Shown here: positions 1 through 4,724 of the stretch, piece after piece
Layout: each line of letters starts with the position of its first letter
Numbering within the stretch: the stretch's first letter is position 1
Origin: a virus
Taxonomy: Duplodnaviria; Heunggongvirae; Uroviricota; Caudoviricetes
Strand: one strand, 5' to 3'
Virus record (IMG/VR): IMGVR_UViG_2671180422_000001
Length of the DNA: 4,724 nt
Notes under the pieces: model-generated
The model's input: the letters and a program-made list of their open reading frames with translations, nothing else
Told to the model about the DNA's origin: nothing
Databases searched by the model: none
Translations under genes and position numbers: made by a program

Positions 1-9
1 GAATGCCAT
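1..9 (-). CDS. tfa: First three codons (Met-Ala-Phe) of a probable tail fibre assembly (Tfa-like) gene, truncated by the window edge
   Basis: ATG (complement of 7-9) overlaps the stf stop as TAATG; ATG-GCA-TTC gives MAF, the N-terminus I recall for lambdoid Tfa proteins; position immediately downstream of stf is the canonical one. Only 9 nt are visible. Confidence 0.3.
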
Positions 10-3000
10 TATGCAAGCCTCACAATATAGTTAAATGCGATGTTTTTGACGGTGTTTTCCGCGTTACCAGCAGCGTTAACGGTGATGGTGTGTCCATGTG
101 AGCCAATCGCAACGGAGTGCGTATGAGCACCAATACCGACAGTATGTGCATGTGCGCCTGCGCTTGCAGCAGTGCCGGACAGCGAGTGGGTATGAGCACC
201 ATCTGATGATGTCTTCCCTGCATTACGAGTCTGGCCACTACCGCTTGTTGTGCTCATAATCCCCGCGCTTGGATTTGAAATCGCGGTATAACCATTAGGG
301 AAAATGCTCGTGTTCGTGCCACCAAATGCACCGGAACTCTTGTGTTGGTGCGCACCGGCACTATTTGCAGTCCCGCTAATACTATGGGTATGCGCCCCGG
401 TGTTATTCGTGGATTTGGTTCCGTAATCAAACGACGATGTGTTTTTCGTCCCCAAATCCGTACTGGATGCGCTGGCGCTGTGGGTGTGCGATTTAATGCC
501 GTCCTGTTCCTGAGATAATACGGCTCGACCACTGGCAGGTTTGCCCTTAATCGTCCAGCCACGCATATCAGGGATCACGCCTGACGGATAAGCGGCTGCA
601 AGTTTTGGGTAGGCAGATTTGTCAAAAGTCTGCCCCTGCATCAGGGCATAACCAGACGGAACGGTATCTGATGGCCACGGGATTGGTGCACCGACTGGAT
701 AAAACTCTGCAGGAGGATGAGCCGAGGTGTAAAGCTGCGCCCAACCACTTTCAAAACCATAACCGTCTCTTGAAGAACGGTAGAACAGACCACCATTTCT
801 GTAATGCGCCTTCATCTGCAGGGTCCGGCAACTTCCGACTCCGGTATAGAAGTTAACCAGAATATAGCTGTCGCCAGAGCGGGTGACATTGTAAGCGCCT
901 GATTCGGCATTCCATGGAACGCCCCCATCCGCATCGGCATACGCATCCGTTGCTCTTCTGGCAAAAGCAGCCACATGCGCGGCGGTTAAAGTGATATCAG
1001 TAGAACCATCAAATGGAACACCGGATATTTTTCTTGCAGTCTGAAGTTTTGTAGCAGTTGCAGCATTACCAGTGGTGTTCTGATTACCCGTAGTGTTTAC
1101 ACCTGGAAGGTTAATATTTGCAGAACCGTCGAAAACAACTCCACCGATAGATCTTGCCGTCTGCAATTTCGTGGCTGTACTTGCATTACCATTCAATGAA
1201 CCAGTTAATCCACCTGTAACAGACAACGGACCTGAAACTGTTCCTCCGGTTGTTGGCAGTGCTCCAATATCTAACGGCGTCGGTTTCTGATGTGTGCTAT
1301 ACATCGTATAAACAACACCATCGGTAACGCTGGAAGGCTTACTCGCTGAATATGTTGGCGATGTATAAATAGAAACTGTCGCATTTGCAGTACAATCCCA
1401 ATGGATATTTACACGAGTCGCATAATTGCCAATCTCAACGTAAATATCATATGTATCGCCGGATGTGTTGATCCAGGCGAAATTCGTTAATCCGACGGCT
1501 GTACGCTTCCACAAAGCCCCGGTAATTCCTTTGGGGTTTCCATTGCCTGCTCGTAGAACCAGTTCTGAAATGCCTGCCTGATGTGGGGAACCGACGTTGT
1601 AACCAGCGCCACCAATCAATGCGATGTAAACGATGGAACTCGCTTGTGGCATGGTAACCGTAGCCAGTTTGAACCACCCAGCCCCGCCAGAGAAAGACAT
1701 CGTTACTGAATTTAAAGTACCAATATCTTTCGGCGTTAATGTTATATCCGCAGTCAGTGCTTTTCCGTTAACTTTTCGGTTAGATGGCACCCTGCTATTC
1801 GCATTGTCATTGGCTGCTTTAACTGCTTTTGGCGTTGCGGCCAGCGATTCACTGGTGCTATCAACAGCACTGCTAAGTTTCACAACACCTTTAGTTGTAA
1901 GGCTTGCGTCTTCCATCGCAACTGCACCGGCAATCTCTTCAGCACGATCAGCAGCAGCTTCCGCACGGGTCGCAGCGGATTCAGCAGCAGTTTTGCTCTG
2001 AGATGCTGCCGTCGCACTGCCTGCCGCCTCTGTTGCTTTCGTGGATGCCGTCGTGGCGCTGCCCTTCGCTGCTGACGCCTGTCTGGTCGCCTCATCTTTT
2101 GAAGCAGACGCAGATGATGCCGATGACGCTGCCGAACTGGCGGACGATGCGGCTGCCGTTTTTGAGGATTCTGCACGGGTTTCCGACGCTTTCGCATTCG
2201 TTTCGGATGTCTTCGCTGCGGAAGCAGACCTCGCTGCTGCGCTGGCCTGTACAGCGGCTTCGCCAGCCTTCGTTGTGGCTGTTGAAGCGGACGATGCAGC
2301 ACTTTCTGCCGATTTTCCGGCGGCGGTGGCACTGGCTGAGGCCTGCCCGGCACTTGTTGACGCGGCACTGGCAGACGACGCAGCCGCTGTTTTTGAGCCT
2401 GCCGCAGCCGAGGCGCTCTGTCCCGCTGCCGTTTCAGAAGACCTGGCGTTTGTCTCAGACGTCTTTGCCGCCTTCGCGGAATTGCCTGCCGCCGTTGCCG
2501 AGGAAGCGGCACTACTGGCGCTTGATGATGCGTTCGTTTCTGATGATTTCGCTGCCTCTTTTGAGGCCGCCGCATCCCGGGCTGAGGTGGCTGCTTCTGA
2601 CGCCTTCGTGGTCGCGGCGGATGCAGAAGTGGCTGCTGATTGTTGTGACGCTGCCGCATTCGTTTCTGACGTTTTCGCCGCAGCGGCACTGGTAGCTGCC
2701 GCGCTTTTTGAGGACTCTGCAGCAGCAGCACTTTTCGATGCTTCACTGGCCTTTGTTGATGCCGTTCCTGCGCTGGAAGATGCTGACTGAGCCGACGACG
2801 CGGCCTGTCCGGCTGACGTGCTGGCTGCGCGTGCTGAGCCTGCAGCATCAGTCGCATGGGTTACCTCCTGTTCCTGTGGTTTAAACCCATTCTGGTTTTG
2901 GCTAGATTGAAAACGTGCCGGATAAAGAATCTGCATTTCGCTGATTTCACCCTTAAAAAAATTGGCCAGACGTTCTGCAAGATCGATAGATGGAACTTGT

Positions 3001-3110
3001 TCCAGTCTTTCAATACGACTCAGCGTCGCTGGATTGACCTGAACGCCAGCAGCAACATGCTGCAAAGTAAATCCGTGCGCCTTACGCACATTCCGTAATG
3101 GTGATTGCAT
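9..3110 (-). CDS. stf: Chimeric ORF: Cro/XRE-type HTH segment (aa 1 to ~85) fused in frame to a lambda-Stf-like side tail fibre (aa ~86-1033)
   Basis: Uninterrupted 1033-codon ORF with ATG at 3110-3108 and GGAGG (complement of 3115-3119) 4 nt upstream; stop TAA is the complement of 9-11. N-terminus [43 protein letters not shown] fits the Cro/C1 HTH pattern. Residues ~86-400 are Ala/Ser/Thr-rich with repeated KTSETNA motifs; two [25 protein letters not shown] tail-fibre repeats at aa 642-706; C-terminus GAPIPWPSD...[23 protein letters not shown]...[15 protein letters not shown]...[11 protein letters not shown] matches my recollection of the lambda Stf / T4 gp37-type His-rich tip. No search was run. 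Confidence 0.85.
993..1187 (-). repeat. Two copies of a ~25-aa phage tail-fibre repeat ([25 protein letters not shown])
   Basis: Reverse complement of 1113-1187 encodes [25 protein letters not shown] and of 993-1067 encodes [25 protein letters not shown]; this motif is characteristic of the phage tail-fibre repeat family. Confidence 0.65.
1911..2855 (-). repeat. Low-complexity Ala/Ser/Thr-rich coding repeat region of the tail-fibre shaft, with reiterated KTSETNA-type units
   Basis: Translation aa ~86-400 is >80% A/S/T/G/K/E; K(T/S)SETNA recurs at aa 146-152, 188-194, 216-222 and 300-306 (e.g. 2655-2675, 2193-2213); near-identical nucleotide strings gcattcgtttcNgaNgtYttcgc recur. GC-rich and repetitive, producing long shadow ORFs on other frames. 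Confidence 0.75.
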
Positions 3111-3207
3111 ATGACCTCCACATATTGCGTGATGAGCATATTATTTCACGCAAATATTTTGCGCAAGTTGATTTGCTTAACGCGCAATAAAGAAATGTAA
3201 TAAACGC
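3111..3207. promoter_or_regulatory. Divergent promoter/operator region (OR-like) between the cro::stf ORF and the repressor gene
   Basis: 97-bp gap between divergent starts. Inverted repeat TTGCGTGA (3125-3132) / TCACGCAA (3146-3153); CGCAAAtatTTTGCG (3149-3163); palindrome TTGCGCAA (3159-3166); GCGCAA again at 3182-3187. Leftward promoter candidate: -35 TTGCGC (complement of 3161-3166), 17-bp spacer, -10 TAATAT (complement of 3138-3143). Rightward candidate: -35 TTGCTT (3173-3178), 17-bp spacer, -10 TGTAAT (3196-3201), placing the transcription start at about the repressor ATG. Confidence 0.55.
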
Positions 3208-3900
3208 ATGAACATAGGAAACCGAGTCAGACAACTTCGCCAGGCGAAGAACATGAAAATCGCCGATCTCGCTGAAGCAATAGGAGTGGATGCGGCGAAT
3301 ATCTCACGCCTGGAAACAGGTAAGCAGAAACAATTCACTGAACAAGCCCTGAGTAATATTGCCAGGAGCTTAGGTGTTGATATTGCAGATCTCTTTACCT
3401 CAGACGTCAAAAGCAATACTGTATGTAAAAACAGTATTAGTGAGGATGTTGCGCAGGTGAAGGATGTATTCCGTATTGAAATGCTGGATGTCAGTGCCAG
3501 TGCGGGAAATGGCCTTATCCAGGGCGGTGATGTCATTGATGTGATTCATGCCATTGAATACAGAACTGATAATGCTGTATCGATGTTTGGCGGACGGCCA
3601 GCCAATCACATTAAAGTTATCAACGTTCGTGGGGACAGTATGTGTCCAACCATTGAGCCAGGAGATCTCATCTTCGTTGATGTCAGTATCAATCAGTTTG
3701 ATGGAGATGGTATCTATGTATTTGGTTTTGATGATAAAATTTATGTCAAACGACTGCAAATGATACCTGACAAACTACTGGTGATTTCTGATAACCAGAT
3801 TTACCGTGAATGGGGAATTACCAGCGAAAATGAACACCGGTTTATGGTCTTTGGAAAGGTCTTAATCAGCCAGTCACAAACCCTTAAGCGACACAATTAA
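3208..3900 (+). CDS. cI/LexA-like phage repressor: N-terminal XRE-type HTH plus C-terminal S24 (LexA/UmuD-type) autopeptidase domain
   Basis: 230-aa ORF, stop TAA 3898-3900. HTH IGNRVRQLRQAKNMKIADLAEAIGVDAANISRLETGK; candidate Ala99-Gly100 cleavage site (SAS-AG-NG, 3502-3507); catalytic Ser144 in VRGDSM (codon 3637-3639) and Lys181 in YVKRL (codon 3748-3750), with the same Ser-Lys spacing (37 residues) as I recall for LexA. No Shine-Dalgarno before the ATG, consistent with a leaderless transcript. Confidence 0.85.
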   Translation: MNIGNRVRQLRQAKNMKIADLAEAIGVDAANISRLETGKQKQFTEQALSNIARSLGVDIADLFTSDVKSNTVCKNSISEDVAQVKDVFRIEMLDVSASAGNGLIQGGDVIDVIHAIEYRTDNAVSMFGGRPANHIKVINVRGDSMCPTIEPGDLIFVDVSINQFDGDGIYVFGFDDKIYVKRLQMIPDKLLVISDNQIYREWGITSENEHRFMVFGKVLISQSQTLKRHN

Positions 3901-3920
3901 CCCTTACCTCCTCATCAATT

Positions 3921-3945
3921 AGCCACCCAAAGGTGGCTTTTCATT
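3921..3945 (+). terminator. Rho-independent terminator downstream of the repressor gene
   Basis: AGCCACC (3921-3927) caaa GGTGGCT (3932-3938), a 7-bp GC-rich stem with 4-nt loop, followed by TTTTCATT (3938-3945). Confidence 0.6.
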
Positions 3946-3959
3946 ACCCTTTAAATTGC

Positions 3960-4008
3960 ATATCTCGCAACAAAAACACTTGCATAATGCGCAACTTCAT
4001 TTTATCTT
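3960..4008 (+). promoter_or_regulatory. Candidate second operator/promoter cluster (OL/PL-like), rightward
   Basis: The OR half-site recurs: CGCAA at 3966-3970 and GCGCAA at 3989-3994, within TTGCATAATGCGCAA (3980-3994). -35-like TTGCAT (3980-3985), 17-bp spacer, -10-like TATCTT (4003-4008). Hexamers are weak matches; this is inference. Confidence 0.25.
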
Positions 4009-4418
4009 TCTTTCCAGACAAACAAACAAGGTACTAACAAAATTTGGTTGTAACACGGCGTATGGCACATGCGTCGTTAGCGGTCTGGGGACGTTAAAGG
4101 GGACAATCCACTCCTTGCTCGGGCAAACAAACCAGGTAGCCGGAATGTGCAAGTCAATGATGATGCTGATAAGACGCCTAACCAGCGTGGCGATTCGGTT
4201 TGACGCCTGGGAAGAGACCAGGGTGCAACGATGAGGGCATTTATGGAGCCGCGACAAAGTGTGGTGCTGTAACTGGCTAAGTGCTCTCAGCGTTGTGGTA
4301 ATCCGCGAAATGGCGCGGCGGTAAGTATGGCGGGGTTACTCTTTCCCCGTTGAGGACACCGGATTGTCAGGTTGACCATACGCCTGAGTGACAACCCCAC
4401 CACAACAGCCACTGCTTT

Positions 4419-4465
4419 GGCGGTACCAGTTTGTACCCTTGCTTCCGGCTGGTACCGCTCTTTTT
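4419..4465 (+). terminator. Candidate rho-independent terminator (plus-strand only)
   Basis: GCGGTACCAG (4420-4429) pairs perfectly with CTGGTACCGC (4449-4458), extendable by two G-U pairs; loop ~15 nt; followed by TCTTTTTAC (4459-4467). No A-tract upstream, so unidirectional. Confidence 0.45.
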
Positions 4466-4554
4466 ACAAAACAGAGAAGAGCATCACCGGACGACGGGCT
4501 CATAACCCAATCCATCCGGGCGGCTGCCACCGCAGGTGTTCTTCTCTGTTTTGT
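4466..4554. repeat. Perfect 15-bp inverted repeat ACAAAACAGAGAAGA / TCTTCTCTGTTTTGT flanking a 59-bp spacer
   Basis: Arms at 4466-4480 and 4540-4554 are exact reverse complements (15/15); flanking bases extend the pairing imperfectly (CACC 4485-4488 with GGTG 4535-4538; UUUUU 4461-4465 with GGAGA 4555-4559 as RNA). Begins right at the T-tract of the preceding terminator and ends 49 bp upstream of the next ORF start. Confidence 0.6.
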
Positions 4555-4602
4555 GGAGAAACTAACCGACCTTACAGGGTCGATATGATGAGGAGCAGCA
4601 AA

Positions 4603-4724
4603 ATGGCTAGCGAACGCAGTACTGATGTGCAGGCATTTATCGGGGAGCTGGACGGCGGCGTATTTGAAACCAAAATCGGCGCAGTTCTCAGTGAAGTCGC
4701 TTCCGGTGTGATGAACACGAAAAC
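4603..4724 (+). CDS. 5' end of an ORF of unknown function (MASERSTDVQAFIGELDGGVFETKIGAVLSEVASGVMNTK...), continuing beyond the window
   Basis: ATG at 4603 preceded by AGGAG (4591-4595) at 7-nt spacing; frame open to the window end. Two further in-frame ATGs at 4585 and 4588 lack a comparable RBS. I do not recognise the product. Confidence 0.45.
   Translation, partial: MASERSTDVQAFIGELDGGVFETKIGAVLSEVASGVMNTK

Follow-up and report, generated by a model that had tools for sequence, protein, structure and literature searches.

The window analysed here, a stretch of 4,724 nt from the virus record IMGVR_UViG_2671180422_000001, is 100% identical to positions 3571808-3576531 of E. coli strain 26561 (NZ_CP027118.1; CP027118.1). 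It belongs to a prophage remnant that sits at tRNA-Thr (thrW), next to proA, and in which the genes are ordered int ... yfdR-yfdQ-yfdP, repressor, a truncated helix-turn-helix (HTH) gene, a tail protein gene, tfa, avs2, a truncated LysR-family gene and the pao genes. A single open reading frame on the minus strand (9..3110; ATG start, stop codon at 9-11) encodes a protein of 1033 aa, present in the ORF list and deposited as AVT64265.1. Its N-terminal part (2863..3110, minus strand) comprises codons 1-83 of an 86-codon gene for a Cro-type XRE HTH protein, a family common in E. coli. Pfam places HTH_3 (PF01381) at residues 5-58 with 32.5 bits (E = 8.8e-8; cut-off, 23 bits) and HTH_31 at residues 5-52, while the intact 86-aa Cro homologue scores 38.9 bits for HTH_3. 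Residues 1-83 fall into transcriptional repressor/regulator families of PHROGs, and solved HTH_3 regulators give weak sequence matches to this part. The HTH_3 and PHROGs matches, together with a divergently oriented repressor gene, bear out the first-pass annotation, which had recognised a Cro-type XRE HTH domain in the position of Cro.

The remainder of the frame (9..2860, minus strand) corresponds to residues 143-1092 of a side tail fibre, including the Ala/Ser-rich shaft, the Collar domain and the C-terminal tip. The Phage Tail Collar domain is found at residues 807-854 of the chimera (Pfam, E = 5.6e-12) and a tail-fibre repeat at residues 902-915; residues 84-1033 match many tail fibre families in PHROGs, and tblastn retrieves phage tail fibre and side tail fibre genes. 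These 950 aa are also identical (100%) to the corresponding part of an intact 1092-aa Stf protein (P0001). The earlier description of this part as a side tail fibre of the lambda type, with tfa after it, is correct. So is the single frame from 9 to 3110, but the switch between the two halves, previously placed at about residue 85/86, occurs after V83 of Cro. The PF08400 domain ("prophage tail fibre N-terminal"), which in lambda Stf attaches the fibre to the tail, spans residues 1-134 of P0001. Residues 1-142 of Stf are lost from the chimera, so the domain is missing in its entirety, as anticipated from the first reading of the sequence. The stop codon of stf overlaps the start codon of tfa, the tail fibre assembly chaperone gene (TAATG, window 11-7), of which the window contains the first three codons (1..9, minus strand); in the source genome tfa starts at window position 9 and encodes a 194-aa protein (WP_032199983.1) that is identical in intact prophages.

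The repressor gene (3208..3900, plus strand; 230 aa, WP_001020632.1, the same accession as in intact prophages) is divergent from cro across 97 bp, as first described. Its product is assigned to the CI-like repressors in PHROGs and contains HTH families and a Peptidase_S24 domain (residues 104-218, E = 6.4e-19), with the serine in a GDSM motif and the lysine in a VKRL motif. It thus has the LexA/CI-type architecture of SOS-cleavable repressors, from which self-cleavage is predicted. The 97-bp regulatory region (3111..3207), an analogue of OR/PR/PRM, lies within a segment of 6,140 bp whose identity to the intact prophage of ATCC 43886 is 99.95%. It contains sites of the TTGC-N7-GCAA type at 3125 and 3173, further TTGCG/CGCAA inverted repeats and, on the minus strand, the GGAGG ribosome-binding site of cro (3115-3119), located 4 nt before the ATG of the chimera; the chimera has kept a strong ribosome-binding site, as had been noted, and it is cro's own. 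Beyond the intrinsic terminator that follows the repressor gene (3921..3945, plus strand) are two more operator-like sites (3956-3970 and 3980-3994), which probably represent OL/PL. Across the whole window, TTGC-N7-GCAA-type sites are no more numerous than chance would give (5 sites against an expectation of 4.3); what is suggestive is only that they cluster in the two intergenic regions. The window ends within yfdP (4603..4724, plus strand), with which the annotated part of the leftward early operon (yfdP-yfdQ-yfdR...int) begins; the remnant has kept this operon intact.

The origin of this arrangement becomes apparent by comparison with E. coli ATCC 43886 (NZ_CP024256.1), in which an intact prophage occupies the same tRNA-Thr site. 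Identical accessions are found in the two elements for the integrase and four further early-left proteins (YfdR, YfdQ and YfdP among them), as well as for the repressor and Tfa, and the intact prophage continues from an 86-aa cro through ymfL to gpJ, lom, stf, tfa and avs2. In intact prophages, cro is followed on its 3' side by ymfL (cII-like) and then by a replication-type HTH gene. Homology between the remnant and ATCC 43886 extends on the left over the 6,140-bp segment, ends exactly at nt 250 of cro and restarts on the right within stf; 30,977 bp are missing according to the BLAST coordinates, and about 31.8 kb are missing relative to strain 120899 (NZ_CP025916.1). The prophages of both strains share with the remnant the attachment site and the integrase, early-left, repressor, Cro and Tfa proteins, and Avs2 is common to the remnant and the ATCC 43886 prophage. 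They differ from it in keeping the approximately 31-32 kb between ymfL and stf codon 142, including J and lom, which precede stf in the undeleted relatives and are deleted in the remnant. They also differ in the length of the Stf shaft, the protein being 1133 aa in ATCC 43886 and 1024 aa in 120899, compared with 1092 aa for P0001. Judged by these shared sequences, the ATCC 43886/120899 prophage represents this element without the deletion. Both comparisons uphold the proposal that cro and stf point the same way in intact relatives and that one internal deletion would yield the observed arrangement.

The junction was placed by a three-way comparison of the fusion with intact cro/ymfL and intact stf. 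The bases are specific to cro up to nt 248, are followed by an AA common to both parents (2861..2862, minus strand) and are specific to stf from nt 251 onwards, so that V83, the last residue of Cro, is followed by T143 of Stf as residue 84 of the chimera. The shared dinucleotide lies inside an imperfect match between GAGGTAAGCCGTG in cro/ymfL and GCGGCAACCCATG in stf; similarity at the breakpoints thus amounts to 2 bp exact and 13 bp imperfect. In intact phages the left breakpoint corresponds to the 3' end of cro, which overlaps the start of the cII-like gene ymfL (PF06892). The 40-mer that spans the junction is CACAGGAACAGGAGGTAACCCATGCGACTGATGCTGCAGG. The idea that the junction contains 48 bp of "filler" from an unknown source was discarded, the stretch being the normal 3' end of cro found in more than 1,000 genomes; it had appeared as filler in comparison with the first reference strain, Survcare253, in which the C-terminus of Cro is different and rearranged.

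Altogether, these data make it very probable that the open reading frame was left behind when, very recently, a single illegitimate deletion removed about 31 kb from a lambdoid prophage at thrW of strain 26561. The deletion would have extended from the last codons of cro, where ymfL starts, to codon 143 of stf, removing the replication genes, Q and the lysis, head and tail genes as well as J and lom, and leaving the segment from int to the repressor, cro'-'stf, tfa and the Avs2 defence cargo. As the breakpoints share just AA, the two genes would have been joined in the same reading frame by chance to give Cro(1-83)::Stf(143-1092), an outcome with a prior of about 1/3. Cro::Stf has the appearance of a chance product of ordinary prophage decay, not of a new protein that was selected. 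The cI-like repressor would normally hold the cro promoter off, and SOS induction would lead, through RecA-stimulated self-cleavage of the repressor, to derepression and to the production of the chimera and Tfa. Such repressor-controlled, SOS-inducible expression is plausible, because the ribosome-binding site and regulatory region of cro are kept and the repressor gene opposite is intact. The product could trimerise via the C-terminal part of Stf with the help of Tfa and would then bear three HTH domains, but it would have neither the tail-attachment domain, nor a tail to join, nor a lysis system by which to leave the cell. The free or DNA-tethered fibre envisaged in the first-pass annotation is speculative; any product of a remnant devoid of lysis and tail genes is expected to stay in the cytoplasm. 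For the host, the most likely gain would be the loss of lethal lytic genes while immunity and Avs2 are kept, rather than the chimera itself.

The deletion appears too young for the state of the frame to carry information about its function. Not one of the 250 nt of the cro part differs from cro of ATCC 43886, and the stf part shows 0 mismatches in 2,854 nt (window 9-2862) to stf in L009, where J-lom-stf is found upstream, the tfa-Avs2-paoD flank is the same and 2 further mismatches occur in about 8 kb. The first-pass annotation had argued that a relic in decay would not be expected to be as intact as the fusion, which might therefore be functional. This argument fails, as neither half differs by a single nucleotide from an intact gene of another strain and there has been no time for decay; with zero mismatches on either side of the junction, intactness is uninformative about selection. 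Likewise, the dN/dS ratio of the fibre part, which had been put forward as a further indicator, is undefined with zero substitutions relative to the closest intact allele, and selection on the chimera is neither shown nor excluded. More generally, a long intact frame in a prophage remnant should not be taken as evidence of selection when it is nucleotide-identical to intact relatives.

It could nevertheless be envisaged that the chimera has been exapted, i.e., that Cro::Stf is made upon SOS induction and is useful to the cell. In such a scenario, three roles could be imagined: poisoning of tail-fibre assembly in related lambdoid phages, whether superinfecting or resident in the same cell, through mixed trimers or titration of Tfa; action at the operators that are left, as an altered Cro in trimeric form; or service as a free fibre that binds receptors and is set free upon lysis of the cell by another prophage. 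The chimera is not obviously non-functional, given that almost all of Cro, the ribosome-binding site and an intact chaperone gene have been kept. Consistent with a role, the regulatory region and the repressor are intact too, 83 of the 86 Cro residues and the whole fibre from shaft to tip are retained, and the genome of strain 26561 has other stf-bearing prophages, its record matching the window at four places. This reading is nonetheless very unlikely: the chimera occurs just once in 5,426 complete genomes and about 15 billion proteins, its zero substitutions leave no signature of selection, comparable in-frame fusions of Cro to unrelated genes occur elsewhere, the remnant has no route for export or lysis, and expression would take place only upon repressor cleavage. 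It is scarcely credible that an SOS-inducible Cro::Stf together with Tfa would constitute a selectable, defence-like by-product, either as a dominant-negative "poison subunit" or Tfa sink that disrupts fibre assembly of related lambdoid phages infecting the same cell or induced in it, or as a trimeric Cro that rewires what is left of the immunity switch. If the chimera did disturb the assembly of the fibres of related phages, it would represent a small but new kind of prophage-derived interference.

The distribution of the junction and the behaviour of the same Cro elsewhere are in line with an accidental deletion. The first-pass annotation had proposed conservation of the junction across strains as a test, and the junction turned out to be a singleton: it is present in one of 5,426 complete E. 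coli genomes, and 1,035 others have intact cro/ymfL sequence at that point. The exact 1033-aa protein was found on 1 contig among about 15 billion proteins. Other E. coli isolates have this Cro in frame with no fewer than five different phage genes from further downstream, its N-terminus being joined to Rz-like (P0136), PerC (P0158), RusA (P0180) and YmfL/CII (P0150) proteins and to a protein with PF07157 (P0153), all of them deletion products of the same kind. Like the chimera described here, these fusions combine the N-terminus of Cro with a portion of what is normally a more distal gene of the rightward operon; they differ from it in their partners and breakpoints, and none includes a tail fibre. 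P0158 occurs on 25 contigs, compared with one for the Cro::Stf junction. Independent deletions in other strains join the early-right region to J or lom. A literature search for Cro-tail-fibre fusions returned nothing relevant, and the six supplementary text files of the strain 26561 paper contain no mention of tail, phage, Cro or helix-turn-helix.

An artefact, either an erroneous join made by SPAdes in the hybrid assembly or a deletion acquired by the laboratory culture used for sequencing and absent from the natural isolate, is extremely unlikely. The junction is known from a single hybrid PacBio and MiSeq assembly, with short and long reads obtained from separate cultures and a chromosome coverage of 27x, and spontaneous prophage deletions do arise in culture. 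However, similarity of 2 bp exact (13 bp imperfect) is far below any assembler k-mer, which makes a repeat-driven mis-join unlikely, and both sides of the junction are colinear with the expected flanks, tRNA-Thr/proA and the pao genes. Besides, a deletion acquired in culture would be no less real and would leave the interpretation unchanged. A natural family of tail fibres with an HTH-like N-terminal module, in which the arrangement would be ancestral rather than a fusion, is practically negligible as an explanation and was refuted: the whole-chimera and junction-region searches found no protein spanning both halves among 5.8 billion clusters, the 120 best homologues listed cover the fibre part only (92% of the query), the full-length ones among them nearly all beginning with PF08400, and in intact prophages each half has a nucleotide-identical counterpart in a gene of its own, the two genes lying about 31 kb from each other.

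The remnant resulting from the proposed deletion is comparable to the defective lambdoid prophages of K-12 such as e14, Rac, Qin and those of the CPS-53/KpLE1 type, which were made by internal deletions. Its yfdP/Q/R correspond to the genes of CPS-53, and the cI-like repressor with the cro-like gene to ymfK/ymfT of e14; the names yfdP, yfdR and ymfL do occur in annotations. As in these elements, the integrase, early-left region, immunity region and stf-tfa end are kept, while replication, lysis and morphogenesis genes are lost. Unlike them, the remnant has endpoints inside two ORFs in the same frame, giving rise to a 1033-aa chimera, and, being so young, shows no other lesion. With lambda Stf/Tfa the chimera has in common the Collar domain, the tail-fibre repeats, the C-terminal tip and the overlapping downstream tfa. 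Intact Stf homologues have PF08400 at the N-terminus and are encoded after J-lom; in contrast to lambda Stf, the chimera does not have this domain (residues 1-134 of the intact protein) and cannot be a virion component. The locus is of little importance as a biological system, but it provides a clean and datable case of the disarming of a prophage in one step by a microhomology-poor deletion of about 31 kb, which spared the immunity repressor, the early-left operon, tfa and the Avs2 gene, and to which the large chimeric ORF is incidental.

Some minor features of the window deserve mention. An internal start at a strong Shine-Dalgarno sequence and ATG at 2857 (AGGAGGTAACCCATG) was rejected, as it opens only an out-of-frame ORF of 325 aa in the Ala/Ser-rich region; AGGAGGTAACCCATG is the ribosome-binding region of cro/ymfL joined to an ATG-containing codon pair of stf. 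Matches to isrG in Rfam (20.7-30.6 bits, against a gathering score of 100) were dismissed as composition and repeat similarity of the antisense strand of the Ala/Ser-rich repeats, and a tRNA scan detected no tRNA. Finally, the annotations of the chimera locus in GenBank and RefSeq are inconsistent: GenBank contains the complete 1033-aa protein under the name of an HTH protein, whereas the PGAP annotation of RefSeq does without the fusion and has a truncated HTH pseudogene, an internally started 635-aa "phage tail protein" and an antisense ORF that is probably spurious.

The window is 100% identical to positions 3571808-3576531 of the genome of Escherichia coli strain 26561 (NZ_CP027118.1), which originates from bovine mastitis in France. 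The long cro'-'stf ORF, proposed in the first-pass annotation as a Cro-like helix-turn-helix (HTH) domain fused to a tail fibre, is confirmed by ORF, Pfam and PHROGs analyses: it runs from 9 to 3110 on the minus strand, starts with ATG and encodes 1033 aa. In Pfam, HTH_3 is matched at residues 5-58 (32.5 bits, cut-off 23), HTH_31 is also matched at the N-terminus, and the Phage Tail Collar domain and a tail-fibre repeat lie at residues 807-854 and 902-915, respectively. In PHROGs, residues 1-83 fall into transcriptional repressor/regulator families and residues 84-1033 into many tail fibre families, and, in tblastn, many coliphages have tail fibre or side tail fibre genes that match the fibre part. 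Compared to Cro, the fusion keeps the HTH and the gene position, and its DNA binding is putative; compared to the Stf family, it is atypical in one defining respect, having no N-terminal PF08400 domain. The ORF is divergent from a repressor gene (3208..3900, plus strand; 230 aa, with HTH and Peptidase_S24 domains in Pfam), and the 97-bp spacer between them (3111-3207) holds TTGC-N7-GCAA-type sites and TTGCG/CGCAA inverted repeats. Two further TTGC-N7-GCAA-type sites, at 3956 and 3980, are found downstream of the repressor's terminator. The fusion stop overlaps the start of tfa (TAATG, window 11-7), whose product is annotated in the source genome as a tail fibre assembly protein of 194 aa. The fusion is not called by RefSeq PGAP, which gives instead a 38-codon HTH pseudogene "missing C-terminus" and a 635-aa "phage tail protein" with an internal start; the GenBank record has the full 1033-aa product (AVT64265.1).

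The origin of the fusion is revealed by comparison with undeleted prophages. In E. coli strain 120899 (NZ_CP025916.1), this tRNA-Thr site is likewise occupied by a lambdoid prophage, apparently intact and with an identical repressor, in which the HTH gene at the Cro position encodes 86 aa and overlaps, by its final 8 nt, the start of ymfL, a cII-like gene (PF06892). ATCC 43886 (NZ_CP024256.1) is a closer counterpart, with identical accessions for integrase, repressor, Tfa and four other early-left proteins (including YfdR, YfdQ and YfdP), and its prophage also has cro, ymfL, replication genes, Q, lysis, head and tail genes, gpJ, lom, stf, tfa and avs2. The alignment of strain 26561 with ATCC 43886 extends over 6,140 bp at 99.95% identity, ends exactly at cro nt 250 and picks up again within stf, so that 30,977 bp are missing (about 31.8 kb by the coordinates of strain 120899). 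The breakpoint bases read ...CAGGAGGTAAGCCGTGGG in cro/ymfL, ...CAGGAGGTAACCCATGCG in the fusion and ...GTGAGGCGGCAACCCATGCG in stf: the fusion has cro-specific bases up to nt 248 and stf-specific bases from nt 251, and the AA at nt 249-250 (window 2862-2861) is common to both parents. Relative to the intact prophages, neither the regulatory region nor the repressor nor tfa is changed. One internal deletion, as the first-pass annotation had anticipated, disarmed the prophage and made the chimera; it spans about 31 kb, and its microhomology is 2 bp. The resulting protein comprises Cro residues 1-83 of 86 and Stf residues 143-1092 of 1092; replacement of the Stf attachment domain, also anticipated, is borne out by the loss of residues 1-142: all of PF08400, the "prophage tail fibre N-terminal" domain (residues 1-134), lies in this segment.

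The fusion was initially regarded as less decayed than would be expected of a relic, an argument that is not supported, given zero substitutions, a private junction and the in-frame fusions expected from about a third of such deletions. The cro part shows 0/250 nt mismatches to ATCC 43886, and the fibre part has 100% protein identity to P0001, an intact Stf of 1092 aa that is carried by 26 contigs. In one carrier of this Stf (GCA_051217695.1, locus L009), where the order is J-lom-stf-tfa-Avs2-LysR'-paoD and the right flank is as in strain 26561, the DNA matches the window from 2862 down to 9 with no differences, and the roughly 8 kb beyond contain 2 mismatches. As neither part has a single substitution, inheritance alone accounts for the 3.1-kb open frame; the missing stop codons in the Ala/Ser-rich part are unremarkable, since other frames are likewise open there for 249-325 codons. 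With a 121-nt probe spanning the junction, 1,036 genomes align to 80% or more of the probe. Strain 26561 alone continues past the junction; in all the others, the match ends there, over the boundary between the HTH protein and ymfL. The junction is private: it occurs in 1 of 5,426 complete genomes, the exact fusion protein on one contig among about 15 billion proteins, and homologue searches found no second protein covering both the Cro and Stf halves.

The structural interpretation is supported, the functional one unsupported, and the chimera is very probably a neutral by-product of the deletion. It is highly unlikely that it was exapted as a dominant-negative fibre subunit, a Tfa sink or an altered Cro. 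An assembly or culture artefact is also highly unlikely. The genome is a hybrid PacBio and MiSeq SPAdes assembly at 27x (PMC6128206), and a repeat-driven mis-join is improbable because the breakpoints have just 2 bp in common.

The repressor, whose translation shows a GDSM serine and a VKRL lysine alongside its HTH and S24 domains, should hold the cro promoter off, and its SOS-induced self-cleavage would allow cro'-'stf-tfa transcription. Lambda Stf folds into trimers with the assistance of Tfa and, by analogy, the chimera could form Tfa-assisted trimers via its C-terminal part. Lacking PF08400, and with the tail genes gone, it would be barred from virions, and it would be unable to exit the cell because the lysis genes are gone as well. 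A plausible selective gain would lie in the loss of lethal genes with immunity and Avs2 kept.

The same process is seen in other isolates, where this Cro N-terminus continues in frame into other phage proteins encoded downstream, five in all: an Rz-like lysis protein (P0136), PerC (P0158, on 25 contigs), RusA (P0180), YmfL/CII (P0150) and a protein with PF07157 (P0153). Related prophages that occupy other attachment sites have independent deletions by which the late end is likewise joined to the early-right region. In Survcare253 (locus L002, 16113-17054), a truncated HTH gene abuts J fragments followed by lom-stf-tfa; in SCEC020001 (locus L004, 11301-12135), the cro-like ymfT gene is followed directly by lom-stf-tfa. 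Loss of the interval from cro to the fibre end, with the immunity region and lom/stf/tfa/cargo kept, thus appears recurrent.

The locus itself is a prophage remnant at the tRNA-Thr site adjoining proA, with the order integrase, several small early genes, yfdR, yfdQ, yfdP, repressor, HTH/tail ORF, tfa, Avs2 (a 1484-aa defence gene), a truncated LysR-family gene and paoDCBA. The e14, Rac, Qin and CPS-53 elements of K-12 are defective lambdoid prophages that arose by internal deletion, and the 26561 remnant is of this well-known kind; its sole oddity is that both breakpoints lie within ORFs in the same frame. Retained Avs2 and immunity repressor may account for its persistence. Downstream of tfa, up to the end of the prophage, is a cargo site whose defence genes vary (L001 9433-13887, just past window position 1, downstream of tfa; also loci L004, L007 and L016). 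It holds Avs2 in strains 26561, ATCC 43886 and CUVET16-819. Other prophages with this Stf have a LEM-3-like GIY-YIG nuclease there, together with a DNA cytosine methyltransferase and an EcoRII-like endonuclease. In the related SCEC020001 prophage, a Dsr1 sirtuin adjoins the integrase end.

Several minor features overlap the fibre part. A 245-aa RefSeq "hypothetical protein" (WP_061362279.1; 2053-2790, plus strand), antisense to the Ala/Ser-rich stf shaft, is most likely a spurious call, since composition leaves several frames open there. Three sub-threshold Rfam matches to isrG (1946-2703, plus strand; 20.7-30.6 bits, gathering score 100), also antisense to repetitive Ala/Ser-rich stf, probably reflect tail-fibre repeat sequence common to the isrG seed rather than an sRNA. 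At 2855-2872 (minus strand), the deletion put the cro 3′ end AGGAGGTAACCC immediately 5′ of an ATG within stf; this textbook SD-ATG arrangement is a putative start for an out-of-frame 325-codon ORF (1880..2857).

Independent of the cro::stf finding is a conserved, strongly structured element at 4455-4565 (core about 4461-4557, plus strand), within the unannotated gap of about 700 bp (3901-4602) from the repressor gene to yfdP. It is apparently undescribed: no match was found in Rfam 15 or in the papers searched, and ARAGORN called no tRNA. Folding of 4260-4600 gives -138 kcal/mol (z = -4.3), and the core consists of a 25-bp outer stem that encloses an invariant loop of 22 nt, GACGGGCTCATAACCCAATCCA, closed by a 5-bp stem, and then a small variable hairpin. 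The GGGCUCAUAACCC part of the loop equals the E. coli initiator tRNA-fMet anticodon stem-loop. Across 26 distinct variants, 94.6% of cells in the flanking stem are paired, with compensatory changes in three of its five pairs; the covariation score is reached by 0/500 shuffles, and pairing is lost in slid registers. The element may be a cis-acting leader RNA, for which the HK022 put RNAs offer a conceptual precedent (PMC9378689), or may mimic the tRNA-fMet anticodon arm. Each E. coli prophage has one copy, and at least 120 viral contigs of IMG/VR contain the 22-mer. In ST64B and Citrobacter phiNP, as in the window, it is flanked by the repressor gene and the first early-left gene; in Klebsiella phage Chronis and Pantoea phage PA-1, it adjoins lysis genes.
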